Counted from the stretch's first letter, positions 1 through 13,752 are shown. The stretch is DNA of 28,377 nt from a virus (IMGVR_UViG_2675903575_000014:1-28377), one strand, 5' to 3'. Notes: generated by a model from the sequence alone, not told the origin. Numbers and translations: made by a program.

Positions 1-1020
1 CTACTTACTGACCACAAGCGGCAAATCCAGTGTTGGTGTTATTTTGGTTTTACGATCGTAAATCAACACCTGATTTTCTGTTTTGTGTCCACTGAAAATT
101 TGTTTGTCGCGACTGCTGCCTTCGTAATCTGAAATCCCTTTGGCTTTTATGTCATGGAAGTTGCACCCAAACGGAACGCCGGCTTTTTGCTCGGCTGCAC
201 GTTTAGCCTGATTCCACCAGTTGTTCAGCGTCTTGGCTATTACCTTCCCGCCTTTGGTTGTGTTGATCACATACTCGCATGTGCCGGAAGATACATTTCG
301 GGCTAACTGGATCGCCGTACGTAATCGCGGAGACCATTCCTTGATTTGTTTAGTGCCGGTCTTGTTTTGCTCAATGTAAATCCCTTTCTCCATAATATCC
401 TGCCATTTCAGCTCGAGTACATCACCGAGCCTTGCCGCACAAAGATAGGATATCTCCATTGCAATACGTAACTGTGGAATTGCTTCCGCATATATTGCAG
501 CATACTGTTCATCGGTGATGTAAACAGTACGGGCTTTAAGTGTGAATTTTCTGACTCCTTTGCATGGATTATTTTTCACATACCCACGCTCATATCCCCA
601 TCCGTATACACGGCTCAGACTTGCCAGTTCATGGTTTGCTTGGGTCTTGCTCTCAAGTCCTCGCTTATCCATGAAAATTCTTACCTGTTCAATTTTTACA
701 TTATCAGCAAGCACTTTTCCGAATACTGCCAACAATGCCCTTTGATGTTGCCGATAATCTTTTTGGGTTCGGGGGGCCAGTTCTGTAAATGCAGGGGAGT
801 CCATAAACATGTGCCATAATTTAGCTACTGTCATTATGTTGTGGAGTTTTGCTTTTTCCAGCTCATAATTTTGCCAGACTTTAGCTACGCTGGTTTCCCG
901 CACTCTTCCGAGCCCTATAGTTCTTGTGCTTCCTTCGGGTTTCCATACGTAACTGTAACCATTCGATCTAACACGCGGTGGTAGTGCATTATCTTTTTTG
1001 TTTTTTCTTGGTCTTCCCAT
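1..1020 (-). CDS. int: Phage integrase, tyrosine recombinase family (339 aa, complete; stop at 1-3)
   Basis: Basic Arg/Lys-rich N-terminus MGRPRKNKKDN..., typical length and att-proximal position at the prophage end; 5' end overlaps the excisionase-like ORF as in lambda int/xis. Confidence 0.85.
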   Translation of the reverse strand: MGRPRKNKKDNALPPRVRSNGYSYVWKPEGSTRTIGLGRVRETSVAKVWQNYELEKAKLHNIMTVAKLWHMFMDSPAFTELAPRTQKDYRQHQRALLAVFGKVLADNVKIEQVRIFMDKRGLESKTQANHELASLSRVYGWGYERGYVKNNPCKGVRKFTLKARTVYITDEQYAAIYAEAIPQLRIAMEISYLCAARLGDVLELKWQDIMEKGIYIEQNKTGTKQIKEWSPRLRTAIQLARNVSSGTCEYVINTTKGGKVIAKTLNNWWNQAKRAAEQKAGVPFGCNFHDIKAKGISDYEGSSRDKQIFSGHKTENQVLIYDRKTKITPTLDLPLVVSK

Positions 1021-1240
1021 TGTTCAGCGCCTCAAAATCGGGTTCAGCGGAAACCAGTTCAGGTGCTTTTGGCATCGTAGTCAGTCCGTGTGGAATATCC
1101 CTGCGAAGAACTATTGGTTCGTTTTTAGGACCGATTACAAATGGGATACCGTGCAGCCTTAACTGGTGTTGCTGTTTTGTGTATCGCTCGTATTTCGTGA
1201 TCTCTTGAATCTCTGCTGGCGATAGAGTTAATTCGTACAT
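989..1240 (-). CDS. xis: Putative excisionase / small DNA-binding recombination directionality factor (83 aa)
   Basis: Small basic ORF directly upstream of int, overlapping it by 32 bp; lysine-rich C-terminus (GKTKKKQKR). Assignment is by position and size, not by recognised sequence. Confidence 0.5.
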   Translation of the reverse strand: MYELTLSPAEIQEITKYERYTKQQHQLRLHGIPFVIGPKNEPIVLRRDIPHGLTTMPKAPELVSAEPDFEALNNGKTKKKQKR

Positions 1241-1306
1241 GTGGTCACGTGCCTTACAGCATGACCGCCGCCAATATAATTCGGGGACGGCGATCAGGGT
1301 TGAACA

Positions 1307-3778
1307 TTAAAAATCAACCGGATTCGGGATCAGTTTTTGCCAGATTGCTGAAACGTATTTTGCCTGGTAACGGGCGTCATCAAGTGCATTATGGCGCTCA
1401 CCTTCGAATGGAATAGCCATTCTGGCATCGAAGTCTATGGCTTTCCCCAGCTCAACGATTGTGCGTACATCGCGATCGTTGTAGTAACGCCACGGGCAGG
1501 GGATCCCCTGCCGTTCGTATGAACGGCGCAAAATCGTGTTGTCGAAGTTGGCTCCATTTCCCCAGACCTGAACAAAAAATTCACCGGAGTTTTCGTCGAT
1601 AAATTCCCGCAATTGTAACAGTGCATCATCTAACGGGATTTCATCGGTCATAATGGCAGATTGCGCTTCGCGTGATTGCTTAAGCCACCATTTAATGGTG
1701 TCCCGATCAATGACTCCGCCAGCAGTTTCCAGATCGATAGTCTTACTAAATTCCGGTCCCATATCTCCGGTTTGCGGATCGAAAAATATTGCACCTATTG
1801 AGATAATCGGGGCATCAGGATTTTTTCCCATGGTTTCAAGGTCGATCATTAGATGGTCACACGTCCTGCTGGTGGATGTGATAACGTGATGACCGTTCAC
1901 CGTAATTAAGGGATCTGCCGTCTCGCCAGTTTCACTATCGCTGGCGTGATCCTGAGCGCTGCCAGCATTCTCTTTGTGTGGATGTTCAGCGCCTTCCATT
2001 TTCTCCGAATCGTCTTCCTGAACTTCAACCTGGTTCTTGTCATCGAATGTTTCCTGGTATGTTGCGTCGCCCATCACCGCACCACAATCAGGGCAGTTGC
2101 CGCCGCCGGTCTGACCGCAGGCGGTGCAGACTTTTTCCGCTTCCTGTTGCGCTACTGGCTCAGGTTGTTTCGTTTCTGGCTCGTTTTGTAACGCATTTGG
2201 GCTGTTTTGTTCCGCTTTCTGGTCGTTCTGTTCCGTTTCTTGCTGGTTCTGATTCACTGAATCGCGGGTTTCAATCCCCTTCACCCATTTCGGATCATTC
2301 GGGTCGCTAATCCCTGCAACAAATTCACCACGTGATACAGCAAGCAACTTATCGGCGTCAGGCTGGCTGATATTGGCTGCCTGCATAATTTTGTTTACTT
2401 CGTCAGCGGTAACTTTTACCGGCTCTGGTTGTGCGGTCGTGTCAGATGCACCAGTATTTTGTTGTGAACCTGAGTATGTACCGTTTTTACGGGCAAAATA
2501 TTCTTCTTTCGTGATTTCAGTAGCCCCTGCAGTCAGCGCCTTATTCAGACCAGAAAGTTTGTTTGCGCGACCATATTTTTCGCCATCCTTGTCGGTGAAG
2601 AGGAAGTAGAACGGCCCCTCACGCTCTACAGATGGTTCGACTTCCACTTTGCATTCGGTTTTTTCGTTGTCCGGAATTGCCGTTTCCACTGCATCAGTTT
2701 CTGGTACTGGCGACGAGAGAGTATCAGTTGCGCTCTGATTTCTTCCTTCATCTTCAAACACGCCCTTTGTAGTCAGGTATTCAGTAATGTATTTGTTCAG
2801 TGCCACAGGGTCTTTGTGAATGTCGATCGGACGTTCACGGACAAGGCCAAAAATAGTCTGGCGGTCGTAGCGAAGGGCATCAGGCTGTTTGCGCATTGAT
2901 GCCGAGATACGCTTCCAGTCTTCGCGGTCGTTGTCGATAACTTCATTTTTTGCCCAGCGATGGATGCTGCCGTCAATGTTTCCGGCATCCACATCACCAG
3001 GCCAGAGAGCGTAGGCCAGTTCGTCATCCAGTGTTTTCCATGTCTGCTTGTATTCGCGATGAGTGGCAGCAATGACCGGGCTGATTTTTCCTGTTGAATT
3101 GTCAGTGTACTGTTGATTGGCTCTGGCGCGGGCGAGATCAACAACAGACGTGTATTTTCCGGTTTCCTTGCGTTCACCTTCGCGACGTTTTTTCCAGATG
3201 CGCATCTCTGCCTGAATTTCGGGCCATTTAGCACCAGGAATACATTTATGCTTAACCCACCCAATGGCGTGCAACTTAAGCTCCGGATACATGGCGTTAA
3301 CTTCTGGCATTTTCATCAACGCTTCAACGATATGTCCGTCGAATGTTGCCATGTCTTCCTGCAACAATTCCTGTGCGCTAATAACCATATCAACGGTGAT
3401 GTTTTCACATGTGTCGAACTTAACCAGGACCGCGTTCTGTACTTCAGGGGACAGCTTGTCAAAATTGACGTTCATCGGATCGGATTCTGGTTCGACCGGA
3501 ATAAAGGAAGCGGATTCCTCATCCCAGCAGTTTTCCTGCATATATTCGGTATCCCAGGAGTCGATGGCAGGGCGGGGCATGCCGGGTTTATCCTCGCAAA
3601 CAAGAAATTTATAAGCGCAGTCCTGAGCAGCCGGATATTGCTCCAGGAATTGCCAGGTAAATTTGGCTCGGGCGCGGCGTTCGTCGCCGGCTTCAATGGC
3701 AGTGGCTACAGCGACTGCACCTTCTTCCTTTATTGCCTGTTCGTCCGGAATGGCGGCGCAAATAAAGACTTTACTCAT
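1307..3778 (-). CDS. Large exonuclease-family protein (823 aa) with a C-terminal DnaQ-like (DEDDh) 3'-5' exonuclease domain
   Basis: C-terminal ~180 aa carries DLETMG ... NGANFD ... HNALDDA motifs typical of DEDD exonucleases. The middle is acidic and low-complexity (Q/E/N-rich), with a CxxC-x8-CxxC zinc-ribbon-like motif (CTACGQTGGGNCPDCG). It occupies the lambda exo / Rac recE position. Confidence 0.7.
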   Translation of the reverse strand: MSKVFICAAIPDEQAIKEEGAVAVATAIEAGDERRARAKFTWQFLEQYPAAQDCAYKFLVCEDKPGMPRPAIDSWDTEYMQENCWDEESASFIPVEPESDPMNVNFDKLSPEVQNAVLVKFDTCENITVDMVISAQELLQEDMATFDGHIVEALMKMPEVNAMYPELKLHAIGWVKHKCIPGAKWPEIQAEMRIWKKRREGERKETGKYTSVVDLARARANQQYTDNSTGKISPVIAATHREYKQTWKTLDDELAYALWPGDVDAGNIDGSIHRWAKNEVIDNDREDWKRISASMRKQPDALRYDRQTIFGLVRERPIDIHKDPVALNKYITEYLTTKGVFEDEGRNQSATDTLSSPVPETDAVETAIPDNEKTECKVEVEPSVEREGPFYFLFTDKDGEKYGRANKLSGLNKALTAGATEITKEEYFARKNGTYSGSQQNTGASDTTAQPEPVKVTADEVNKIMQAANISQPDADKLLAVSRGEFVAGISDPNDPKWVKGIETRDSVNQNQQETEQNDQKAEQNSPNALQNEPETKQPEPVAQQEAEKVCTACGQTGGGNCPDCGAVMGDATYQETFDDKNQVEVQEDDSEKMEGAEHPHKENAGSAQDHASDSETGETADPLITVNGHHVITSTSRTCDHLMIDLETMGKNPDAPIISIGAIFFDPQTGDMGPEFSKTIDLETAGGVIDRDTIKWWLKQSREAQSAIMTDEIPLDDALLQLREFIDENSGEFFVQVWGNGANFDNTILRRSYERQGIPCPWRYYNDRDVRTIVELGKAIDFDARMAIPFEGERHNALDDARYQAKYVSAIWQKLIPNPVDF

Positions 3779-3858
3779 TTTGTTTTAACCTCATTACAGA
3801 TTTAAGGGTGAACAAATCCCTGCCATTGCTGGCATATAAAAATGAAACCGGATATTAA

Positions 3859-4068
3859 TTACGGTGCTGTTTTAAGTCCTGCCGGGATTTCGTTATTGTC
3901 CATGCGAATAACTTTATCAACCGGATAACAGTTGCCGGGAATTTTCTGTTCCGCTGCGGCAGCCATGCATTCTTTCATTGAGTCATGTATACCAATAACA
4001 AGATCGACTGGCTCGCCTGTATTAAGAAAAACCGTCAGAACGAGTGCAAATACTGTATTCATTGTCAT
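3859..4068 (-). CDS. Small hypothetical protein with hydrophobic N-terminus (69 aa, MTMNTVFALVLTVFLNTGE...)
   Basis: Its ATG overlaps the stop of the upstream gene in an ATGA arrangement (translational coupling); signal-peptide-like N-terminus. Confidence 0.45.
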   Translation of the reverse strand: MTMNTVFALVLTVFLNTGEPVDLVIGIHDSMKECMAAAAEQKIPGNCYPVDKVIRMDNNEIPAGLKTAP

Positions 4069-4247
4069 CGTCCTTTTTGCATCAGGCGTAAACGGGCCAG
4101 CATTGAAACAATGCATATTTGATTTAATAGCTCCCGTTCGTGTTTTCTCTTATTAATGGCATCTTCAGTAAATACAGGGTTACTGATTCTGACACCAATT
4201 TCAAAACAACCTTCAGACGTATTGACGTTTGGTAATAACGTTTCCAT
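4065..4247 (-). CDS. Small early-left protein (60 aa), possibly Kil-like host-division inhibitor
   Basis: GAGGA Shine-Dalgarno 7 nt upstream of the ATG at 4247. Size and position fit a kil-type gene; sequence similarity to lambda Kil is only a vague impression. Confidence 0.35.
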   Translation of the reverse strand: METLLPNVNTSEGCFEIGVRISNPVFTEDAINKRKHERELLNQICIVSMLARLRLMQKGR

Positions 4248-4430
4248 TATCGCATCCTCAACAATGAATTTTGTGATGCGGTGCCTGGTGCCTCCAGGTG
4301 ACGTTAACCAGTTAATAATTAACGCCGGATACAGAGAACCCACCCATAAGAACCAATACGGAAGTCAACTGGCCTTTTTAACTGTTCCGCGTGCGCTGAG
4401 CCGCATTCACCGCATCACAAAATTCACTTT

Positions 4431-4476
4431 AAAAAGGGCGGGTATCACAAGGGAAAACAAAAAACGGATACCCGCC
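4431..4476 (-). terminator. Putative intrinsic terminator / attenuator on the leftward transcript
   Basis: 10-bp perfect stem GGCGGGTATC / GATACCCGCC with a 20-nt loop, followed on the minus strand by a T-run (plus-strand AAAAAG at 4431-4436). Confidence 0.4.
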
Positions 4477-4719
4477 AAAAGGTAATCAACATGGGTTGTT
4501 GCAGCGGGGTTGTCACTTAAGCGTATGGTCAACCTGACAACCCGGTGCCACTAATGGGGTAAGGATAACCCCGCCATACTTACCGCCGCGCCATTTCGCG
4601 GATTGCCACAACCGGAAGTGCACGGTCGACGAAAATTTAACGACAGGCTATCTATGAACCAGCTACCTCGCCGTACGCTTTCGCGTTGTGTGCCTGCTTT
4701 TAACCACGTCAGGCGAGGT

Positions 4720-4758
4720 GGTTCCTGTTATTCCCCAACAACAAGAAATTTGTATAAT
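4720..4758 (+). promoter_or_regulatory. Putative promoter with extended -10 (TGTATAAT at 4751-4758)
   Basis: A TGnTATAAT element sits about 35 nt upstream of the GTG at 4793, with a purine-rich SD-like GAGAAGAG between them. Confidence 0.4.
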
Positions 4759-4792
4759 CCGGATATCCCCAACAACGAGAAGAGTACTCAAC

Positions 4793-5248
4793 GTGATAGC
4801 AGAACTGTCAGCGGCTATGGCTGCGATAAAGGAGACAGCTGGTCTCGCTAAGGTTATTAATGACGCAAAAACGGATGCAGAAGTTAAAGCCGCAACTATT
4901 GAACTTCAGAACAAACTAATCACGCTTCAGGCGGAATGCTTCTCTCTTTGCGATGCGATCCGCTTTCGTGATGAAGAGATAATGCATCTCAAAGCAAAAA
5001 TTGCAGAGACAGAAGATTTTCAGCGACAGGCGGAAGGTTACAAGCTTAACAAGCTTGATTCTGGAACCCTTGTATATTCCAAGAAGCAATTTATAGGCGA
5101 TACTGAGATAACTGTGTATCTTTGCCCACAATGTTTTGGAAAAAAGGTAATATCTGTACTTCAGCCAATGGAAATAATGCGCTTTGATGCTCATTTTCGT
5201 ACTTTTTGCCCCGCTTGCAATAATAAGTTCTGGATGAACTCAAGATAA
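4793..5248 (+). CDS. Hypothetical coiled-coil protein with C-terminal C4 zinc ribbon (about 151 aa from GTG 4793; alternative ATG at 4817)
   Basis: Plus-strand ORF inside the otherwise minus-strand early-left operon. N-terminal half is heptad-like and charged (AEVKAATIELQNKLITLQAE...); C-terminus has CPQC-x23-CPAC. The upstream 4688-4792 part of the track ORF is probably non-coding leader. Confidence 0.55.
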   Translation: MIAELSAAMAAIKETAGLAKVINDAKTDAEVKAATIELQNKLITLQAECFSLCDAIRFRDEEIMHLKAKIAETEDFQRQAEGYKLNKLDSGTLVYSKKQFIGDTEITVYLCPQCFGKKVISVLQPMEIMRFDAHFRTFCPACNNKFWMNSR

Positions 5249-5383
5249 TTAACCGTTTAAATAAGTTGGGACTATCCAGATTTTTAAAGAACGTACCGGA
5301 TGCTCACCCGTGTCCGGCGCACGCACTCCACCTGACCCGTGAAGAACTCCTTAATTACCAACCTTAGCTTCGTTGGTTAGCTA

Positions 5384-5602
5384 TTAACGCGGGTATGAAA
5401 TCATTCTGGCAATGCTTAATGCCGCTGCTTTTTCCAGCCTGGTGATATCCTGCTCCAGAGCGGACAGATTTTCAGCCTGCTTAGCCCTGGCTTCATTGGC
5501 CCATTTCAGATCCTGCGCTGCATTAATTTTCTGGCGCATCCACTCATAAAGTTCATCATCGGTATAGTCTGGCGCGATGATGACGGGTTCTCGTTTCTGC
5601 AT
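5384..5602 (-). CDS. Hypothetical small protein (72 aa)
   Basis: GAGGA SD 6 nt upstream of the ATG at 5602; charged helical composition; sits in the early-left operon. Confidence 0.5.
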   Translation of the reverse strand: MQKREPVIIAPDYTDDELYEWMRQKINAAQDLKWANEARAKQAENLSALEQDITRLEKAAALSIARMISYPR

Positions 5603-5631
5603 ACTGATTCCTCGCGGTGCTGCTTCGCTTA

Positions 5632-5760
5632 TCAGCCGTTAGATTTTGCCGAGCTGGAAAGCGCCTGTTTAAACTCACTGAAGCTGAGAGCTTCTTCGCC
5701 TTCGGCAAGGCCTTCGAAGTATTCTTCGTAAGCCTTTTCCATGATTGTGTCGAAATCCAT
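5632..5760 (-). CDS. Small acidic protein (42 aa; MDFDTIMEKAYEEYFEGLAEGEEALSFSEFKQ...)
   Basis: Found by manual translation (too short for the ORF track). Start is 2 nt after the stop of the upstream gene, with a GGTGAG SD-like sequence; 11 of 42 residues are acidic. Confidence 0.35.
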   Translation of the reverse strand: MDFDTIMEKAYEEYFEGLAEGEEALSFSEFKQALSSSAKSNG

Positions 5761-5761
5761 A

Positions 5762-5995
5762 TCACTCACCTGAGTTTCTTTCCAGCCAGCGACGCGCGCC
5801 AGATTCGGTTTTAAACGTTTTGCTTTTGGTATACGTCATCGCAGTGAACGTGCCGTCCTGGTTGGGGAACACGCCACATACCAGAGATTCGCTGTTGCCA
5901 AGATCGATAGTATCCATGCTGACCTCATTTCCCCTTAACGCCGGGGTGGCGGAACAAAAACCTGCTGCATAGTTAAAGTTGAACCCTGCCGTCAT
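5762..5995 (-). CDS. Hypothetical small protein (77 aa; alternative start at internal Met, plus coordinate 5917)
   Basis: First ORF downstream of the putative PL; GAGG SD before the ATG at 5995. Confidence 0.45.
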   Translation of the reverse strand: MTAGFNFNYAAGFCSATPALRGNEVSMDTIDLGNSESLVCGVFPNQDGTFTAMTYTKSKTFKTESGARRWLERNSGE

Positions 5996-6095
5996 GTTCT
6001 TACGCCTCGGGCTGGCTACTTAACCCCTGACCACTGCCTGGTAACTCGAAGTATTGCCCTGCGTTCTGTGGGGCGGGGTGAGGTGGTATACCATA

Positions 6096-6124
6096 AAACT
6101 AAATCTATTTAGTTTTATAGTCAA
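6096..6124 (-). promoter_or_regulatory. Putative PL promoter with overlapping operator (CTAAATCTATTTAG at 6099-6112)
   Basis: Minus-strand -35 TTGACT (plus 6119-6124), 17-bp spacer, -10 TAGTTT; the 14-bp palindrome CTAA-N6-TTAG overlaps the spacer and -10. Confidence 0.4.
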
Positions 6125-6142
6125 GTGTGATCTAGATATATT

Positions 6143-6167
6143 TAAAAAAGGTCGACAAAGCCGACCT
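6143..6167 (-). terminator. Putative intrinsic terminator downstream of the repressor gene
   Basis: Stem AGGTCG / CGACCT with a 7-nt loop, followed on the minus strand by a T6 run. Confidence 0.45.
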
Positions 6168-6190
6168 CTGATTGAAAAACAAAGTGGAAG

Positions 6191-6841
6191 CTATAGGCTG
6201 AACTGCACACCTTTTGCTACAGCAACAATTTTACATTCAGGTGTCAGTAAGGACGATTGATAGCGAGGATTGAGGGGGCTTAAATACACGAGTTTTCCGT
6301 CGATGACTAATTTTTTTATAGTCATAGATGGTTCGTTTGTAAGCGGATCTGGGACTATTACAGCGACGATACTACCATTTTTATATTTTTCTCTAGGCCT
6401 CATGATCACTGTGGCACCAACCGGAATGCTTGGCGACCCTGATGGGTTGTGCATAGTGTCATCAGGCATTGAAACGGCAAAATCCCCCTCCTTGACGTCA
6501 AAGAATGTGGTGATTCTGTCGGCATTTCCCATAGTTTTCTCTCCTTCTAAAATTAGGAAAGAAATTGCTTCCCCCCATGAAAGATAGGGGATTTGGGTGC
6601 CTGAATTGTTCTGCACAAGGGTAGGTTCAGTAGACGATACTCCATATAGGAGATAGGACTCAGTAGTTCCTAGTGCTTGGGCTAATTTACTAAGAGCTTT
6701 GCTACCGGGTTCGTTTAGGTCTTTCTCCCAGTACCCTATAGTTACCCCTGTTACGCCAGAAAGCTTGCCCAGTTCGACTTGGGTCAGTCCCTTGTCTTTT
6801 CTGAGTCTCTTAAGCCTAATGCCAAGGCTTTCCATCATCAT
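6191..6841 (-). CDS. cI: CI-type prophage repressor (HTH_XRE N-terminal domain plus LexA/S24-like autoprotease C-terminal domain)
   Basis: N-terminal LKRLRKDKGLTQVELGKLSGVTGVTIGYWE is a classic XRE helix-turn-helix. The C-terminal domain has a Ser in the AVSMPDDTM context and a Lys in TIKKLV, consistent with the S24 catalytic dyad. Three tandem ATGs; the third (6835) has the best SD spacing. Divergent from cro. Confidence 0.85.
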   Translation of the reverse strand: MMMESLGIRLKRLRKDKGLTQVELGKLSGVTGVTIGYWEKDLNEPGSKALSKLAQALGTTESYLLYGVSSTEPTLVQNNSGTQIPYLSWGEAISFLILEGEKTMGNADRITTFFDVKEGDFAVSMPDDTMHNPSGSPSIPVGATVIMRPREKYKNGSIVAVIVPDPLTNEPSMTIKKLVIDGKLVYLSPLNPRYQSSLLTPECKIVAVAKGVQFSL

Positions 6842-6865
6842 CTCCCGTGAATTGAATATAAATTA

Positions 6866-6918
6866 TTTTAGATTGCATTGACCTAAAAAAAATTATCCTT
6901 TAATCTAAAAATACTTAG
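6866..6918 (+). promoter_or_regulatory. PR promoter and OR operator region
   Basis: -35 TTGACC (6878-6883), 17-bp spacer, -10 TAATCT (6901-6906); a 14-bp palindrome CTAAAAATACTTAG (6905-6918) with the same CTAA-N6-TTAG architecture as the OL site; GGAGGG SD before the cro ATG. Confidence 0.5.
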
Positions 6919-6933
6919 TTTTAGGAGGGTGAA

Positions 6934-7161
6934 ATGCGAGTTGATGAACTTGTCCAGTTTTTTGGCTCTGTTCAGAGAGTTGCCGATTTTTATGGGATAA
7001 CCCGTGAAGCTATATACATGTGGCGCAAACGTCCTGGTGAAATAGTTCCCAAGGGGAGGGCCGCGGAAGCTGCCGCATACTCCAAGGGAAAATTATCTTT
7101 GAACCCAGAACTTTACAAAAAGAAGGATAACACCTTGAACGAAGGAAAGAATGATTCATGA
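6934..7161 (+). CDS. cro: Cro-like transcriptional regulator (YdaS/Cro family, 75 aa)
   Basis: Small HTH protein divergently transcribed from the repressor gene; motif FYGITREAIYMWRK; its stop overlaps the next gene start (ATGA). Confidence 0.75.
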   Translation: MRVDELVQFFGSVQRVADFYGITREAIYMWRKRPGEIVPKGRAAEAAAYSKGKLSLNPELYKKKDNTLNEGKNDS

Positions 7162-7583
7162 AAATCAAGCATGAACACATCCGCATGGCGATGAATGCCT
7201 GGGCGCGTCCTGATGGCGAAAAAGTTCCAGCAGCTGGAATAACCCAGGCTTATTTTGAGTTGGGTATGACGTTTCCTGAACTGTATGACGATAGCCATCC
7301 GGAAGCCCTGGCTCGCAATACCCAGAAAATTTTCCGCTGGGTAGAGAAAGACACCCCTGATGCAGTTGAAAAAATTCAGACGTTGTTACCAGCGATCGAA
7401 AAGGCAATGCCACCTTTGCTGGTGGCCAGAATGCGCAGCCACAGTTCAGCTTATTTTCGGGAGCTGGTGGAGACGCGGGAGCGACTGGTGAGAGACGCTG
7501 ATGATTTTGTCGCAGTGGCAATCGCCGGTTTCAATCAGATGAACCGTGGTGGCCCGGCAGGAAATGCTGTGGCAGTACATTGA
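7158..7583 (+). CDS. YdaT-family protein (Rac-type CII functional analogue, 141 aa)
   Basis: Position immediately after cro and size match Rac ydaS-ydaT. I recall the MKIKHEHIRMAMN... N-terminus as YdaT-like, but this is from memory and unverified. Confidence 0.6.
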   Translation: MKIKHEHIRMAMNAWARPDGEKVPAAGITQAYFELGMTFPELYDDSHPEALARNTQKIFRWVEKDTPDAVEKIQTLLPAIEKAMPPLLVARMRSHSSAYFRELVETRERLVRDADDFVAVAIAGFNQMNRGGPAGNAVAVH

Positions 7584-7654
7584 CTGACAATAGCCATATC
7601 GAATCACTTCCGGCAACTCGTGAGTAAAAAGATTCGGTATCAGAAGAGGTGAGT

Positions 7655-8674
7655 ATGGCTAACGCTTGGCTCAGATTATGGCATGACATGCCAAATGACC
7701 CTAAGTGGCGAACAATTGCCAGGGTGTCAGGGCAGCCAATTGCAACAGTGATGGCAGTGTATATCCACCTCCTGGTGAGCGCGTCACGAAATGTCACGCG
7801 AGGTCACATTGATGTCACGACAGAAGATTTGGCAAGTGCGCTCGACGTGACAGAAGAGGTAATTGATTCAATTTTGCAGACGATGCAGGGGCGGGTACTT
7901 GATGGTGATTTAATCACTGGATGGGAAAAACGCCAGGTACTGAAAGAGGACAATGGCAACGTTTCACAAACCGCGAAATCCCCGGCAGAGCGCAAGAGAG
8001 CGCAGCGCGAGAGGGAAAAATTACGAAAACAGAATGAGGGGTGTCACGACGAGTCACGCATATGTCACGACATGTCACGACGAGTCACGACAGATAAAGA
8101 TACAGATAAAGAATTAAACCCCACACATAACGCGCGCGTGCGCGAGAGAGCTACGACCAGTGAGTCGAACGGTACGCCATCGCAGACACCGGAGCCCGAA
8201 TATCTGGACGGCATGAGCGAACCCATCGGGAAATTTCCGATGACCGATGGCTGGCATCCGTCGCCGGATTTTCGACGACGGGCTGCTCTGTGGGGAGTGG
8301 CTCTGCCTGAGCCGGAATTTACACCAGCTGAATTTGCAGCCTTCCGGGACTACTGGGCAGCGGAGGGGAAAGTGTTCACGCAGATTCAGTGGGAGCAGAA
8401 ATTCGCCCGTCACGTAAATCACGTCAGGGCGCAGGTTAAACCAGTCAGCAAGGGGGTAAACCATGCAGCAGCACCAGGTGGCACCGCATCACGAGCAGTT
8501 CAGGAAATTCGGGCAGCACGTGAGCAGTGGGAACGTGAAAACGGATTTATCAGCGACGGAAACGGCCTGGAAGCTGTGGGAACTCATGGGGGAGGTTTAT
8601 TCGAACCGCTGGACCCAGAAGAACGGGGCCGCACCTTCGAAGCTCTGGATTGCACAGATTGGCGCGATGACTGA
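7655..8674 (+). CDS. Replication initiator (O-like replisome organiser with DnaT-like C-terminal domain)
   Basis: ATG at 7655 with GAGGTG SD. N-terminal MANAWLRLWHDMPNDPKWR... resembles phage replisome-organiser N-domains; C-terminal PEFTPAEFAAFRDYWAAEGKVFTQIQWEQKF resembles DnaT-like domains. Contains two iteron clusters. The last ~70 codons overlap the P-like gene in another frame. Confidence 0.75.
   Translation: MANAWLRLWHDMPNDPKWRTIARVSGQPIATVMAVYIHLLVSASRNVTRGHIDVTTEDLASALDVTEEVIDSILQTMQGRVLDGDLITGWEKRQVLKEDNGNVSQTAKSPAERKRAQREREKLRKQNEGCHDESRICHDMSRRVTTDKDTDKELNPTHNARVRERATTSESNGTPSQTPEPEYLDGMSEPIGKFPMTDGWHPSPDFRRRAALWGVALPEPEFTPAEFAAFRDYWAAEGKVFTQIQWEQKFARHVNHVRAQVKPVSKGVNHAAAPGGTASRAVQEIRAAREQWERENGFISDGNGLEAVGTHGGGLFEPLDPEERGRTFEALDCTDWRDD
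7783..7819 (+). repeat. Iteron-like direct repeats, cluster 1 (four GTCAC(G/A) copies at 10-bp spacing)
   Basis: GTCACG at 7783, 7793 and 7814 and GTCACA at 7803, one helical turn apart, inside the O-like gene. Confidence 0.45.
8043..8094 (+). repeat. Origin iterons, cluster 2 (five GTCACG(AC) copies at 10-11-bp spacing, followed by an AT-rich stretch)
   Basis: GTCACGAC at 8043, 8064, 8074 and 8084 and GTCACGCA at 8053, then AT-rich cagataaagatacagataaagaattaaa. This is the classic lambdoid ori-within-O arrangement. Confidence 0.6.
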
Positions 8675-9128
8675 GCAGCAAATCCGTCAGGTCTGCCGCC
8701 AGTGCATGGACCGCTGCCGGACGGGTGAAACATGGCCTCCGGACCTGGCTGAGTTTGTGGCGCTGATTTCGGAGAGTGGGGCAAATCCATTTGGTCTGAC
8801 GGTGGATGCTGTGATGGAGGAGTACCGCCGCTGGCGCAATGAGTCCTGGCGATACGACGGAAGTGATAAGTACCCGTGGTCTCAGCCTGTGCTGTATCAC
8901 ATTTGCCTCGAGATGCGTTCAAAGGGGATTGAGCGCCAGATGACCGAAGGGGAGTTAAAACGGCTTGCAGAATGGCAACTGACGAAATGGGCAAAGCATG
9001 TTGGTAATGGCCTGAGCATTCCGCCAGTCCGGCGACAACTGGCAGCACCAAAACGCCCGTCGGGACCAACGCCAATTGAGTTGCTGAAACAGGAGTATGA
9101 ACGCCGGAAAGCGGCTGGTTTTGTTTGA
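8463..9128 (+). CDS. Replication protein P-like (helicase loader family, 221 aa)
   Basis: AAGGGGG SD then ATG at 8463. Residues about 40-150 align by eye with lambda P (lambda ...EIRRQWVLAFRENGITTMEQVNAGMRVARRQ... vs here ...[31 protein letters not shown]...; lambda YPWKSNAHYWL vs here [11 protein letters not shown]). Confidence 0.7.
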
Positions 9129-9162
9129 GTTGAGAAGTAATTTTTACCGGGAGGAAATTTTA

Positions 9163-9933
9163 ATGGAAACCGTTTTTGATGCACTGAAAGCAATGGGAAA
9201 AGCCACGTCGGTAGAACTGGCTGCGCGACTTGATATCAGTCGTGAAGAGATACTGAACGAGCTGTGGGAACTGAAAAGAAATGGCGTCGTTGATAAAACT
9301 GGTCACACCTGGTTTCTGGCTGGCGAAGGTGAATCCGGGGTAACCGAAGAGCAGCCAGCACAATCTGAAGTACCGGATGTGCTAACCGGGGTGGTCGAAC
9401 AAAAAGTTACCGCTGACATGATGATTGAGTTTATCGGTCAGGAGGGGGCTAAAACGTGTGAGGAACTGGCGAGTAAGTTCGGTGTCAGCACTCGCAAGGT
9501 TGCTTCCACGCTGGCGGTAGTAACCGCAACGGGGCGGCTGGCACGCGTTAATCAGAACGGTAAATTTCGTTACTGCCTGCCGGACGGTAATTTACCAGCA
9601 GAGCCGAAAGTTGTATCGGTAGCGAAAACACCTGGTAAAGGCTTTCCTCAGCCAGCCGGTTTTGCGTTACCAGTACAGGACGCGGCAACACAGGAAGAAA
9701 TTAAAACAGAAACTGTGGCGGACCTTGTGCAGTCACTGCCATCGTTCACTGAAACGCGAGCGAATGGCCTGATTTTACCATCGCTGCATATGGCAAACCG
9801 TGAACTGCGTCGGGCGAAAAGTCATGTCCAGAAGTGGGAGCGAGTCTGCGCCGCGCTGCGGGAGCTGAACAAGCACCAGGATATTGTCCGACAGATTGTC
9901 GATTCCTCCAGTCGTATTGTGTCGGAAAAGTGA
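9163..9933 (+). CDS. Hypothetical protein with tandem winged-helix-like segments (256 aa)
   Basis: GGGAGGA SD before the ATG at 9163; two helix-turn-helix-like segments ([26 protein letters not shown] and [22 protein letters not shown]). Confidence 0.6.
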
Positions 9934-9949
9934 TTCCTGGGGAGGGCTT

Positions 9950-10372
9950 ATGGCAAAAGTATTTACACAGAAAGAGCGAGAAAAAATTAAAGGGCAGATT
10001 GTTGATCTCGTACGCCAGAGCGGGCGAGAGACGTTACGACAACTGGAAGCTAAAACGGGGGCGACAAGATATCTGATAAGCGTTCTTGCCAGAGAGTTGG
10101 TTGCGAGCGGTGATGTATACAACTCTGGCTGCGGGTTATTCCCGTCTGAACAGGCTCGTAAGGACTGGCAAAACGCCCGCAAAAAGCTCTCAAGGGCAAA
10201 GGTGAAGAAAACGGTTGTGGTTGATCCGGACCTTATCTGGTCATTACCTGACGGAGAAATACGTCGCTACGACAGTCGTCTAAACATAATCTGTCGCGAG
10301 TGCCGGAAGAGCGAAGTTATGCAGCGCATACTGGCATTTTATCAGGGAAATGTTTGGTATTTATTGAAATGA
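9950..10372 (+). CDS. Hypothetical protein (140 aa) with N-terminal winged-helix-like segment and C-terminal CxxC
   Basis: GGGGAGGG SD before the ATG at 9950; basic; conserved nin-region position. Confidence 0.55.
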   Translation: MAKVFTQKEREKIKGQIVDLVRQSGRETLRQLEAKTGATRYLISVLARELVASGDVYNSGCGLFPSEQARKDWQNARKKLSRAKVKKTVVVDPDLIWSLPDGEIRRYDSRLNIICRECRKSEVMQRILAFYQGNVWYLLK

Positions 10373-10564
10373 CGAGATTAAAGAGCATTAGTTCAGATAT
10401 TAATTGACACTTCGGTTGCATAAGACTAGAACTACTGTGATTGGCATCTTTGTGCCAAAAACGGACATTACAGTGTATGGTTAATTCTGCCTGTCAAATA
10501 ACTTACATTCATCAAATGTTCGAAATTATGACTTAGCTCAACAATTAGGTTTAGCATGGGTCAT

Positions 10565-10596
10565 ATGACTAGAGTGCAGCAACTTTCTGCTATAAT
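10565..10596 (+). promoter_or_regulatory. Putative promoter with extended -10 (TGcTATAAT) for the KTSC gene
   Basis: TATAAT at 10591-10596 preceded by TG; AAGGA SD and ATG at 10613 follow. Lies in an AT-rich intergenic region. Confidence 0.4.
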
Positions 10597-10612
10597 TTAA
10601 TAAGGATAAAAA

Positions 10613-10840
10613 ATGCCAGCTTATGCTAATAAAGGCGGTAATTCGGGTATAGTGTTTTATGAGGTTACTCCAGATGCTATCACAGTACAGTTTAAAGATG
10701 GATGGAAATACGTTTACGATTCTACAAAACCAGGGGCTTTAACGGTCTCTAGGATGAAAGAGTTAGCCCAGGCTGGGCATGGGCTAAATAGTTTTATTAG
10801 TAGTGTGGTTAAGAAAAATTTCTCACGTAAATACCTTTAA
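10613..10840 (+). CDS. KTSC-domain protein (75 aa)
   Basis: Size and motif pattern (GIVFYEVTPDAITVQFKDGWKYVYDS...) fit the small KTSC domain family found in phages; AT-rich codon usage. Family assignment is by eye. Confidence 0.6.
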   Translation: MPAYANKGGNSGIVFYEVTPDAITVQFKDGWKYVYDSTKPGALTVSRMKELAQAGHGLNSFISSVVKKNFSRKYL

Positions 10841-10847
10841 TTTTAAT

Positions 10848-10874
10848 TGAGGGTGGGAAGGACTATCACCCTCA
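10848..10874. terminator. Hairpin between convergent genes (possible bidirectional terminator)
   Basis: 8-bp stem TGAGGGTG / CACCCTCA with an 11-nt loop between the KTSC gene (+) and the OLD gene (-); weak T-tract. Confidence 0.3.
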
Positions 10875-10993
10875 TAATTCTTCACCATTCAATCAAGAGC
10901 AATTCAAGGTGATTTTTTCTGTACATAGTCGGTTAGTTAGCACTTCGTAATTTATTGAATAGAAGGCTTTTGGAACAGTATCTTCACTCGTGC

Positions 10994-12874
10994 TTATCGC
11001 CCAGCAGATTTAGCAAGAATAGTCTCGAGCATTTCTGGTACGTTGCCTTTAGCATTGATAGTTGCTGTTCGGTAAGCTAGTTGATTTTTTGAGAGATTGA
11101 TTCCTGTAAGTGCTTCAATTTCGTTGCAGGCCTTACCCCATTCTACCCAGTTTTCAGACAAAAAAGATTCAAGATGATCCGCAAATATAGCAATATCATT
11201 AGTAACTGTTGCAGCTGGAAAATCCTCTTCGGGCATACCAAAGTATCTAAGCAGACTTCGATTCTCCATTGCGTGATTATTCCGCTCGGCATCGATAGCT
11301 CCCTGCATTTTATTTTTCGCTTTGGCACGAGCTTCAAAACCCGCATCTGCATCGAAAAGCGCGAAAACAGGAACGCCAATTGTACTTAGAATCGCATGGG
11401 CAAGTGGGATTGATGTCTTTGAACCTACAGGAACAATAGAGATGCCAGCGGCTTCAAGCGAGCCGTGTGACTTCCTGTCGCCAATTCCATAAAACACCGA
11501 TAATTCTGTTGTCCCTTCTACCAGAAAAGCTCTTTGGGCAAAGAGAGCTATTGAAAGCTGATCAGCTACATTATGGCCAAGCCTTCTATCAACTACTTCG
11601 GCATTAACAATTCCTTTTAATTTATCTTTGACATCTTCGATGGTTGCAAAGTGAACAGAAACAACGGGGTTTGCATCAGATGTTCGTGTCAATCGTCTAA
11701 TCTGGTTGAAATGGCGAGCTTCAAGAAAGTATGGGCTGTGAGTCGCATATGTTATCTGTATGCGCTTATCCGCATCTTCGGCGAGTTCTCTGAGTACTTT
11801 TGCAAATGCTTGTGCTTGGATCGGATGCTGAAATAATTCTGGTTCTTCGATCGCAAGGCAAATAACACCTTCGGTAGAGGCTGCACCAGACTGAGCTAAT
11901 AATTGGAGAGCAGAGATCAGTATCGTGCGTTGAAAGCCGTGCCCTTGCCTTTCGACTGCTGTTTCGGTTGTGCCATCAAGCACAGAAACTTCGAATGTGG
12001 TCTTGGGGGCCTTCAGTTCGATATTTGCAGGGGTAACTGTAACAGCACGACCGGGGGAGTAAGTCGTAACTACGGCGTTCAACTGCGCCGTCATATCCGC
12101 AAGTTGGGTTTCGAATTTTTCTTTGTAGACTTTCTGCTGCTGGACTCGGGATTCTTCAACAATCTTTGCAATTTCCTCATCTGCGGCGGTGCGATCAATC
12201 GAACGTTCAAGAATTCGACCAATAATACTCGCCTTGCCATCGAGAGACTCTTCACTGGCACGAAGATCTGCTGTTACCAAAACGTAATCAAAGAGACCGC
12301 TCATCTTGCCGCCACTGTTGAAACCGAAAAAGTTGGTTTGTAGGGATTCAAGTGCCTCATGTAGTAATTCTGTATGTGATGCTTCCCATGCAGTCATTGC
12401 TTCTTCGACAGCAAGCCCGGTCTTGGCAACGGGAAGATTGAATTCAGGATGTGCTTCTCGAAGAGCGTTGTACAAATCCTTCTTCGCTGTTGCTCCATTA
12501 GCAGCTTTAATATCGTTAAAATAAGGGAAACTTTTTGCGTTGGCAGAAAGCCTTTCTGAACCGTCGGGCGCGCGTAGCCTCCAGGCAGTGAATGTTGCTG
12601 CTCCCTGCGGAGCGTATTTGCCAAGTGCTTCACGATCTCTCTCAGTGAGGTTTGAGAAGGTAACCTGTACCTCAATATCTTTATCAATAGTTCCAAATGA
12701 GCAATCTTTTTCATTTAACATCCCGACCTTACCGTTGAAGAACCAATCAAGTGCTCGGAGAACAGTAGATTTACCTGCCCCATTCGGGCCAATGAACGTT
12801 GTAACGGAATCGAAGGGAATATTTATATCTGTCAAAGTACGAAAGTTTTTTATCCTAACGGAATGAATTTTCAT
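10994..12874 (-). CDS. OLD-family ATP-dependent nuclease (N-terminal ABC-type ATPase plus C-terminal Toprim; 626 aa); class 1 OLD or fused PARIS AriA-AriB-like
   Basis: Walker A GPNGAGKST (residues 30-38); Walker B-like VICLAIEEPELFQHP; H-loop-like YATHSPYF; C-terminal Toprim-like FLVEGTTE, VPVGSKTS and FALFDADAG. No adjacent UvrD-like helicase gene. AT-rich relative to flanking phage genes. Confidence 0.8.
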   Translation of the reverse strand: MKIHSVRIKNFRTLTDINIPFDSVTTFIGPNGAGKSTVLRALDWFFNGKVGMLNEKDCSFGTIDKDIEVQVTFSNLTERDREALGKYAPQGAATFTAWRLRAPDGSERLSANAKSFPYFNDIKAANGATAKKDLYNALREAHPEFNLPVAKTGLAVEEAMTAWEASHTELLHEALESLQTNFFGFNSGGKMSGLFDYVLVTADLRASEESLDGKASIIGRILERSIDRTAADEEIAKIVEESRVQQQKVYKEKFETQLADMTAQLNAVVTTYSPGRAVTVTPANIELKAPKTTFEVSVLDGTTETAVERQGHGFQRTILISALQLLAQSGAASTEGVICLAIEEPELFQHPIQAQAFAKVLRELAEDADKRIQITYATHSPYFLEARHFNQIRRLTRTSDANPVVSVHFATIEDVKDKLKGIVNAEVVDRRLGHNVADQLSIALFAQRAFLVEGTTELSVFYGIGDRKSHGSLEAAGISIVPVGSKTSIPLAHAILSTIGVPVFALFDADAGFEARAKAKNKMQGAIDAERNNHAMENRSLLRYFGMPEEDFPAATVTNDIAIFADHLESFLSENWVEWGKACNEIEALTGINLSKNQLAYRTATINAKGNVPEMLETILAKSAGR

Positions 12875-13385: not shown

Positions 13386-13469
13386 TTTTATATTGGCGAG
13401 GTGACGTGAGTTAAGTAGAATTGCTGCGGGTGCTTGAGGCTATCTGTCTCAGGCATGAACACCAAAGGC

Positions 13470-13560
13470 AGATAGAGAAAAGCCCCAGTTAACATTACGC
13501 GTCCTGCAAGACGCTTAACATTAATCTGAGGCTCAATCTATGAACGGCAAATCTAGGTTA
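13470..13560 (-). ncRNA. Predicted Sok-like antisense RNA of the hok locus (position approximate)
   Basis: Inferred from hok/sok family architecture. The leader (gcttgaggctatctgtctcagg ... ggcagatagagaaaagcccc) resembles, from my memory of R1, the hok mRNA 5' region. No explicit promoter was mapped. Confidence 0.25.
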
Positions 13561-13596
13561 GCCTCTTACGTGCCGAAAGGCAAGGAGAAGCAGGCT

Positions 13597-13752
13597 ATGA
13601 AGCAGCAAAAGGCGATGTTAATCGCCCTGATCGTCATCTGTTTAACCGTCATTGTGACGGCACTGGTAACGAGGAAAGACCTCTGCGAGGTACGAATCCG
13701 AACCGGCCAGACGGAGGTCGCTGTCTTCACAGCTTACGAACCTGAGGAGTAA
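13597..13752 (+). CDS. hok: Hok/Gef-family type I toxin (51 aa; MKQQKAMLIALIVICLTVIVTALVTRKDLCEVRIRTGQTEVAVFTAYEPEE)
   Basis: Single transmembrane helix followed by the conserved Cys-containing periplasmic tail typical of Hok/Gef; I recall this as matching E. coli HokD/RelF, unverified. An in-frame upstream ATG at 13540 gives a 70-aa mok-like extension. Confidence 0.85.
   Translation: MKQQKAMLIALIVICLTVIVTALVTRKDLCEVRIRTGQTEVAVFTAYEPEE

Follow-up and report, generated by a model that had tools for sequence, protein, structure and literature searches.

DicF is among the oldest known bacterial sRNAs and is a textbook example of a prophage RNA controlling host division, metabolism, and EHEC virulence. 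The 5′ end of DicF is generated by RNase E, and the 3′ end derives either from termination (giving a 53-nt form) or from RNase III cleavage (giving a 72-nt form); the DicF hairpin terminates transcription in vivo, and DicF has validated targets (PMC5069750). KilS, encoded in the Rac prophage, is Hfq associated as determined by RIL-seq, has been verified by northern analysis, has a RIL-seq partner, and reportedly has a transcription start of its own (Bar et al. 2021; PMC8175672). The paper describing KilS does not mention DicF (PMC8175672); both RNAs occupy the same slot of homologous operons. STnc100 RNAs are encoded mainly in the late region of prophages (PMC12370729; bioRxiv 10.64898/2026.05.13.724894).

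The dicBF locus and its genomic setting

The stretch of viral DNA analyzed here, referred to as the window, is 28,377 nucleotides long (IMGVR_UViG_2675903575_000014:1-28377), and a first-pass annotation of it had drawn attention to a structured noncoding region at 4350-4690. Judged from sequence comparison, this region is the intergenic segment between ydfC and dicB in a Qin/Rac-type dicBF operon (early-left and pL-like) in an E. coli lambdoid prophage, and it is transcribed right to left. The locus can be identified as dicBF because its flanks align with those of Qin and of phage Tritos, because Pfam confirms dicB, and because ydfA, ydfB, ydfC, and a repressor gene are located upstream on the same strand. 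Positions 4240-4690 (minus strand) align nearly base for base with the ydfC-dicF-dicB spacer of K-12 Qin and with Tritos, in which dicF is annotated, and a megablast search with positions 4200-4800 of the window matches 4,711 of 5,426 complete E. coli genomes, in which the left-hand gene is annotated as dicB. Upstream of dicB, and also on the minus strand, are ydfC, ydfB, a DUF1391 ydfA-like gene, and a gene coding for a CI-type repressor, all assigned from open reading frames and annotation; dicB, ydfA, ydfB, ydfC, and the repressor gene are all open here, so the surrounding operon is intact. The first-pass placement in an early-left operon beside a cell division inhibitor gene is thus right, but the gene taken there to be Kil-like is dicB and not kil (Pfam PF05358). 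The locus is an already known one, the dicBF operon with its DicF/KilS slot, and the predicted sRNA allele that it carries, designated type B, is an uncharacterized variant that is missed by the Rfam DicF model. We think it likely that this dicBF locus contains three RNA modules that would be processed in the manner of DicF and would deliver a type B sRNA probably aimed away from the ftsZ site used by DicF. The features of the locus are listed in Table 1.

Table 1. Coordinates of the dicBF locus features in the window and of the two reference sRNAs in E. coli K-12
Feature	Position	Strand	Remarks
dicB (cell division inhibitor, 60 aa)	4065-4247	-	Pfam PF05358, 127.4 bits; RefSeq annotation at 99.8%-identical loci
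dicB Shine-Dalgarno sequence GAGGA	4255-4259	-	5 nt past the end of the long helix
Long multibranched hairpin, ~160 nt	4265-4426	-	Between sRNA and dicB; variable apical module at ~4335-4375
Closing helix of long hairpin, perfect 19-bp inverted repeat	4265-4283/4408-4426	-	124 nt between arms; 21 bp in MFE fold
Predicted mature type B sRNA, ~55 nt	4431-4485	-	UUACCUUUU-GGCGGGUAUC-CGUUUUUUGUUUUCCCUUGU-GAUACCCGCC-CUUUUU; in the slot of DicF/KilS between conserved flanks
C + UUUUU tract	4431-4436	-	Intrinsic-terminator tail; identical to DicF and KilS tails
Terminator-type hairpin	4437-4476	-	10-bp perfect stem, arms GGCGGGUAUC/GAUACCCGCC; 20-nt U-rich loop at 4447-4466
Structured leader, ~200 nt	4486-4688	-	Upstream of sRNA slot; includes 9-bp stem 4507-4515/4535-4543
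Leader closing helix	~4688-4684 with 4490-4486	-	Ends just before predicted sRNA 5′ end
Right-hand boundary of homology with K-12 ydfC-dicF spacer	~4690		From alignment; beyond it the inserted plus-strand gene, then ydfC
Inserted gene, 151 aa	4793-5248	+	Between ydfC and dicF leader; position held by sieB in Rac
ydfC	5384-5602	-	ORFs and annotation
DicF	K-12 1649382-1649434		Slot position; 53 nt; L001 2383-2435
KilS (b4833)	K-12 1418405-1418502		Rac slot; L244 2906-3003

The product of the inserted gene appears to have a coiled coil and then two CxxC pairs, which give it a zinc-ribbon-like C terminus; it is annotated as hypothetical in RefSeq, and it has no Pfam match above threshold and no PADLOC match. 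Type B loci of other genomes have different opposite-strand genes at the same spot. Just upstream of the inserted gene is a TATAAT hexamer (4753-4758) flanked by two 16-nt direct repeats, TCCCCAACAAC(A/G)AGAA, at 4732-4747 and 4766-4781 (plus strand, 34 nt apart), and the repeats and hexamer could be operators or a promoter for this gene. Downstream of dicB are a DUF1482 gene (3859-4065, minus strand; Pfam, 80.8 bits) and a gene coding for an 823-aa RecE-like exonuclease (1307-3778, minus strand). Positions 1-12000 of the window are covered at more than 75% in no complete E. coli genome, and the closest genomes have RacR (477 nt) annotated at the repressor position, compared with a 216-aa CI-like ORF in the window, a difference that points to a mosaic immunity region. 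The segment containing dicB and the long hairpin has ~87% identity to sequences in records named Actinobacillus phage vB_Apl-pPE4 and Aeromonas phage AP1, which are unexpected hosts, and these matches may reflect horizontal transfer or record contamination. A full-length sok antitoxin RNA is present at 13428-13602 (plus strand; Rfam RF01794, 110 bits, with a gathering score of 59), implying that there is a hok/sok-type toxin-antitoxin module in the prophage.

Three RNA modules in the ydfC-dicB segment

Homology and comparative structure show that the ydfC-dicB segment contains three RNA modules: a leader, a slot hairpin with its U-tract, and a long hairpin. The inverted repeats on which the first-pass annotation was based are largely as it described them. 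The 10-bp perfect stem GGCGGGTATC/GATACCCGCC is present at 4437-4446 and 4467-4476 and is followed on the minus strand by a T-tract (C + TTTTT, 4436-4431), and further GC-rich pairs are found, including 4504-4514/4564-4574 and a CCGCG...CGCGG hairpin; the 9-bp perfect stem GGGTTGTCA/TGACAACCC is also present, but the outer limit given for it (4555) is slightly off. There are three perfect inverted repeats of at least 9 bp with loops of no more than 60 nt in 4350-4690, compared with 0.04 expected, and none of 200 dinucleotide shuffles reaches three. As had also been noted, there is no convincing ORF in the interval, the candidates being only 36- to 41-aa minus-strand frames, antisense to dicB, or crossing the homology boundary, and close relatives have 1-nt and 14-nt indels inside these candidate ORFs. 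What had been missed is the homology to dicF, that the 9-bp stem is part of a separate conserved leader, and that there is a larger RNase III-type hairpin at the left edge of the interval.

The leader and the ydfC-dicF spacer of K-12 Qin are nearly identical in alignment, and the leader and hairpin together fold on the minus strand at -89.9 kcal/mol (z = -2.0). Structural conservation in related prophages, on which the first-pass interpretation had been made to depend, is present in the consensus folds of both the leader, for which RNAalifold predicts 51 pairs from 28 nonredundant relatives, and the long hairpin. The leader closing pair covaries (UA in 14, CG in 6, and UG in 5), most other changes convert G-C or A-U to G-U, and column identity is 0.92 to 0.97 in the helical cores compared with 0.62 and 0.82 in the apical loops. 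The leader is noncoding, because there are 1-nt indels among its relatives, and it matches no family in an Rfam search. A motif, GTTAAATTT (4640-4632, minus strand), is present in most leaders and absent from two leader variants, and it is homologous to a sequence just 5′ of the annotated KilS in Rac (L244 3011-3016, minus strand). A consensus promoter scan identifies no minus-strand promoter in 3700-5400 and does not flag this motif; if the motif were a -10 element, a primary transcript of ~196 nt could conceivably start near 4626.

The perfect 19-bp repeat that closes the long hairpin is the strongest feature of the region and straddles the left edge of 4350-4690; the longest repeat in shuffled sequences is 12 bp, and none reaches 19. 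The segment from 4255 to 4436 folds at -73.5 kcal/mol on the minus strand (z = -5.9), compared with -56.9 kcal/mol on the plus strand, and the consensus has 34 pairs, six of which have compensatory changes; swaps from G-C to G-U are also numerous. In the closing helix, C-G/U-G and G-C/G-U are found in all four combinations, and because G-U pairs correspond to A-C mismatches on the plus strand, these changes indicate selection on the minus-strand RNA. By analogy with DicF, RNase III probably processes the transcript at the long hairpin; the 72-nt form of DicF made by RNase III is 53 nt plus 19 nt, so that its end falls inside the closing helix. The STnc100 model (Rfam RF02076) matches the long hairpin at 4270-4424 (minus strand) over model positions 21-154 of 206 with 33.5 bits (E = 2.3e-5), which is below the gathering score of 47, and the K-12 counterparts are likewise sub-threshold (34.4 bits for Qin and 28 bits for Rac). 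Pas sRNAs were considered by way of this match and rejected, as Pas/STnc100 genes are in the Q/late region and not in a position such as this one.

The type B hairpin is in the location of DicF, between ydfC and dicB in the dicBF operon and on the coding strand, and in alignment with K-12 its body replaces the 53-nt DicF body between conserved flanks. The layout is also that of KilS, with a terminator-ended slot ~175 nt upstream of a cell division inhibitor gene, followed by the conserved long hairpin; the distance from the sRNA end (4431) to the dicB ATG (4247) is 184 nt and exceeds that in Rac (176 nt) and Qin (175 nt) on account of a 14-nt apical insert. A terminator and a small RNA were among the first-pass suggestions, and these were right in kind, with the 10-bp stem and T-tract exactly at the position of DicF in Qin and of KilS in Rac. 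The slot hairpin has the form of a rho-independent terminator, with a G+C-rich stem of 10 to 12 bp and then CUUUUU on the minus strand; the U-tract is present on the minus strand only, and the C + UUUUU tract is likely the Hfq 3′ binding site. The consensus terminator scan does not flag the 10-bp stem, as the loop is above the 8-nt limit of the tool, and a smaller alternative hairpin is flagged instead. The predicted sRNA folds at an MFE of -18.5 kcal/mol into a stem of 12 bp capped by an open loop of 15 nt. RNase E prefers to cleave at RN|WUU, which the sequence GA|UUA fits. We infer that the type B 5′ end is at this GA|UUA site, by analogy with the RNase E-generated 5′ end of DicF (PMC5069750).

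The Rfam DicF model (RF00039, gathering threshold of 48 bits) does not match type B at E ≤ 10 in either a 1-kb or a 101-nt search, whereas the same model scores K-12 DicF at 76.7 bits, Tritos at 72.5 bits, and KilS at a sub-threshold 39.1 bits; the covariance search proposed at first pass thus returns nothing for DicF and only the weak STnc100 match for the neighboring hairpin. The annotation of noncoding RNAs in RefSeq is uninformative, as canonical DicF is also unannotated among the matches listed. No description of the type B sequence, under dicF-like or other terms, was found in the literature searched; a prior description is possible, as a 1994 paper on dicF-like prophage sequences is outside that search (Faubladier and Bouche reportedly may describe dicF-like sequences in it). 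A further feature is that the terminator tail CCUUUUUAA (4429-4437) is a perfect 9-bp complement, in the minus-strand RNA, to UUAAAAAGG (4373-4381) in the long hairpin; only ~6 of the 9 pairs are present in K-12. This pairing could sequester the U-tract in read-through transcripts or compete with the hairpin fold.

Alleles of the sRNA slot and their possible roles

The slot is quite diverse. There are at least 10 hairpin types among loci gathered through the conserved flanks from viral contigs and species-representative genomes, a sample biased by the search patterns, such that counts in it are not frequencies: DicF, KilS, type B, C, D, D2, E, G, a hybrid with a DicF stem and a type B loop, and singletons. 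The stem base GGCGG/CCGCC and the U-tract are present in every slot allele, as GGCGG...CCGCC(C)UUUUU, and the hairpin type, the 5′-tail type, the leader type (K-12-like or Rac-like), and the downstream gene (dicB, kilR, or others) occur in many combinations, assorting independently. The canonical DicF cassette is present in 3,953 of the 5,426 complete E. coli genomes (73%), the KilS-type cassette in 1,342 (25%), and the type B cassette in 158 (2.9%). Carriers of type B belong to unrelated pathotypes and include O55:H7 CB9615, O121:H19 STEC, porcine ETEC, and environmental isolates, and the cassette occurs in several prophage contexts with different downstream genes. Type B sub-variants have an invariant stem and keep the loop core CGUUUUG(U/C)UUUYCCC, with changes in the length of the T-run; one sub-variant has only four U's in its tail, and strain A19 has the type B stem with a different loop. 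An IMG/VR contig (L153 4665-4770, minus strand) has a DicF-type stem, GGCGGTATCAG...CTGCTCTACCGCC, carrying the type B loop ATTTTTGTTTTCCCTT, and this hybrid points to recombination within the hairpin itself. That type B is maintained as an allele is indicated by its presence in 158 genomes and several prophage contexts, its invariant stem and conserved loop core, and the occurrence of its loop in the L153 stem.

The way in which DicF is made suggests a path from transcript to sRNA here. Once repression is relieved, transcription of the operon would either stop at the hairpin and U-tract or read through, RNase E would cut the single-stranded A/U-rich linker just past the leader closing helix, and RNase III would cut the long helix. 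The Hfq-type sRNA released would be ~55 nt long, or ~19 nt longer, and the dicB mRNA would be left with a short 5′ UTR. The structural prerequisites for this processing are visible in the fold: the leader helix is followed by a single-stranded A/U linker, and a 19- to 21-bp helix comes right after the U-tract. The type B 5′ tail is too short for a 5′ seed like that of DicF, and so the U-rich loop GUUUUUUGUUUUCCC is the only accessible segment; the loop would probably pair with purine-rich, Shine-Dalgarno-like sequences, at targets other than the ftsZ site of DicF. The transcript, its ends, Hfq binding, and action in trans are predicted for type B from its homology to DicF and KilS, and on these analogies type B is most likely an Hfq-type sRNA that derives from a terminator by processing and has targets different from those of DicF.

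Pairing of type B with the ftsZ ribosome-binding site is not above chance (-11.0 kcal/mol, with large interior loops, and with 0.25 of shuffled loops doing as well), in a weak test that gives only 0.055 for DicF itself; for comparison, DicF pairs at -12.9 kcal/mol in the published register, and the KilS loop pairs at -11.9 kcal/mol in a near-continuous duplex over the Shine-Dalgarno sequence. No type B target can be named from the window and 50 kb of K-12. A target search with RNAduplex, using a 180-nt ftsZ region and all 36-nt windows of the 50 kb of K-12, places the validated DicF-ftsZ pairing only in the top 2% and was set aside as too unspecific, and when the window and K-12 80-130 kb were scanned for contiguous complements of the type B loop, there were only G-U-rich matches and two 13- to 14-nt matches away from start codons, none of which was accepted as a target.

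A broader proposal, which we put forward tentatively, is that the dicF position is a modular payload slot in which sRNA hairpins can be swapped, recombining independently of the flanks, and are delivered by a conserved processing scaffold. DicF, KilS, and type B would then be alleles, with the type B loop redirecting regulation from ftsZ to other host or phage mRNAs. The scaffold would consist of the leader helix and an RNase E-accessible linker upstream and the RNase III helix downstream, placed before cell division inhibitor genes (dicB, kilR, and others).

Two other accounts of the hairpin can be set against delivery of a type B sRNA. The hairpin may do no more than act in cis, as an intrinsic terminator or attenuator restricting read-through from the early-left promoter into dicB, giving rise to an RNA that has no function in trans and a loop that drifts; the parts that are invariant among alleles, the GGCGG/CCGCC base and the U-tract, are exactly those that a terminator needs, the loops and 5′ tails differ widely, the T-run of the type B loop varies in length, and no target stands out. 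Slippage of the T-run and the four-U tail would also fit relaxed constraint. However, both of the studied alleles are stable Hfq-associated sRNAs, DicF with validated targets and KilS with a RIL-seq partner (PMC5069750, PMC8175672), and type B sub-variants retain the loop core, which has also been carried into another stem (L153), where pure drift predicts otherwise, and we regard a role solely in termination as somewhat unlikely. It is improbable that type B is a decayed DicF allele, an sRNA pseudogene without ftsZ pairing that is on its way out, as all type B sequences seen have a perfectly paired 10-bp stem, the 158 genomes carrying it are of unrelated pathotypes with several downstream genes, and the operon is intact here. 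Such decay would be in keeping with the chance-level ftsZ pairing energy, with the sub-variant having a shortened U-tract, and with part of the loop being alignable with the ftsZ-pairing segment of DicF, for example GUUUUCCCCGUGA in sub-variants with GUUUUACUCCGUGA in DicF.

The remaining accounts concern the leader and the repeats as such. The lambdoid nut site consists of a boxA (CGCTCTTTA-like) and then a boxB hairpin, and a nut-like antitermination site had been among the first-pass suggestions. A leader (4486-4688) acting in cis as an antitermination RNA (nut-, put-, or EAR-like) for read-through into dicB would account for the siting of a conserved, structured RNA immediately before a terminator that must be passed for dicB to be expressed, and no N-like gene is evident between the repressor gene and ydfA. 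Yet there is no boxA-like match in 4350-4690 on either strand, and the 19 matches in the window are at chance level (21.9 expected); no Rfam family is matched, and Rac-type loci are without ~125 nt of the leader and nonetheless have the same terminator and downstream layout. The region also has no similarity to HK022 21,000-37,500, where putL and putR presumably lie from gene order, with nothing below E = 3 by blastn (word size 7) or nhmmer, although put, PL, nun, and cI are unannotated in that record and the presence of put sites is assumed. Antitermination by the leader is very unlikely on this evidence. That the inverted repeats are protein-binding sites at the DNA level (operators or recombination sites), as had also been suggested, is extremely unlikely. 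The perfect palindromic arms of 9 to 19 bp would suit such sites, but the arm spacings of 19 to 124 bp are not operator-like, the helix variation is of the G-C to G-U type, with arm substitutions that keep G-U pairs and would be A-C mismatches on the other strand, which makes sense only with selection on the minus-strand RNA, and the homologous regions are experimentally processed RNAs (PMC5069750). We favor a dicBF locus delivering a type B sRNA.

The main value of this locus is as a pointer to allelic diversity at the DicF slot. If the slot carries alternative functional sRNAs, then strains that are dicF negative or dicF positive under current models may hold unrecognized regulators, with type B alone present in ~3% of complete E. 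coli genomes, including those of O55:H7, O121:H19 STEC, and porcine ETEC strains. KilS and DicF would then be alleles of one locus, and the conserved leader and RNase III hairpin would constitute a natural scaffold for making defined short RNAs. Should type B be a terminator and nothing more, this is routine annotation of a known operon.

Comparison with described prophage RNAs

Like the lambda-type nutL/tL and HK022 put RNAs, the RNAs described here are in an early-left operon with a terminator to be read through, but neither a boxA nor an N-like gene is seen here. The resemblance to STnc100 is in the long hairpin, which aligns with the family including the closing helix and the CACCNGGAGGCACCNGGCACC hairpin, with one compensatory change; however, the scores are sub-threshold, and STnc100 is in a late operon (downstream of stx2 and near Q), in contrast to the early-left operon here.

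KilS and Rac are organized more similarly. The Rac slot is ~176 nt upstream of kilR and has the same terminator base, U-tract, and downstream long hairpin, and an opposite-strand gene is located upstream in both (sieB in Rac and the inserted gene here). The hairpin interior of KilS (CAUCAGUUUUUUUCUUGAAGUUCGGCUGAUG) is different, the Rac leader is shorter and of another type, and KilS has a score on the DicF model, compared with none for type B; when the KilS body is compared with type B, only the stem base, U-tract, and downstream flank align, and the interior and 5′ part differ.

Relative to DicF and Qin (RF00039), the differences are that the DicF 5′ tail (UUUCUGGUGACGUUU) and the whole of the hairpin interior are replaced in type B and that ydfC and the leader are separated by an inserted plus-strand gene. 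The two loci nonetheless share the gene order of repressor, ydfA, ydfB, ydfC, sRNA slot, and dicB, as well as a near-identical upstream leader and downstream long hairpin, the GGCGG/CCGCC stem base, and the CUUUUU tail.
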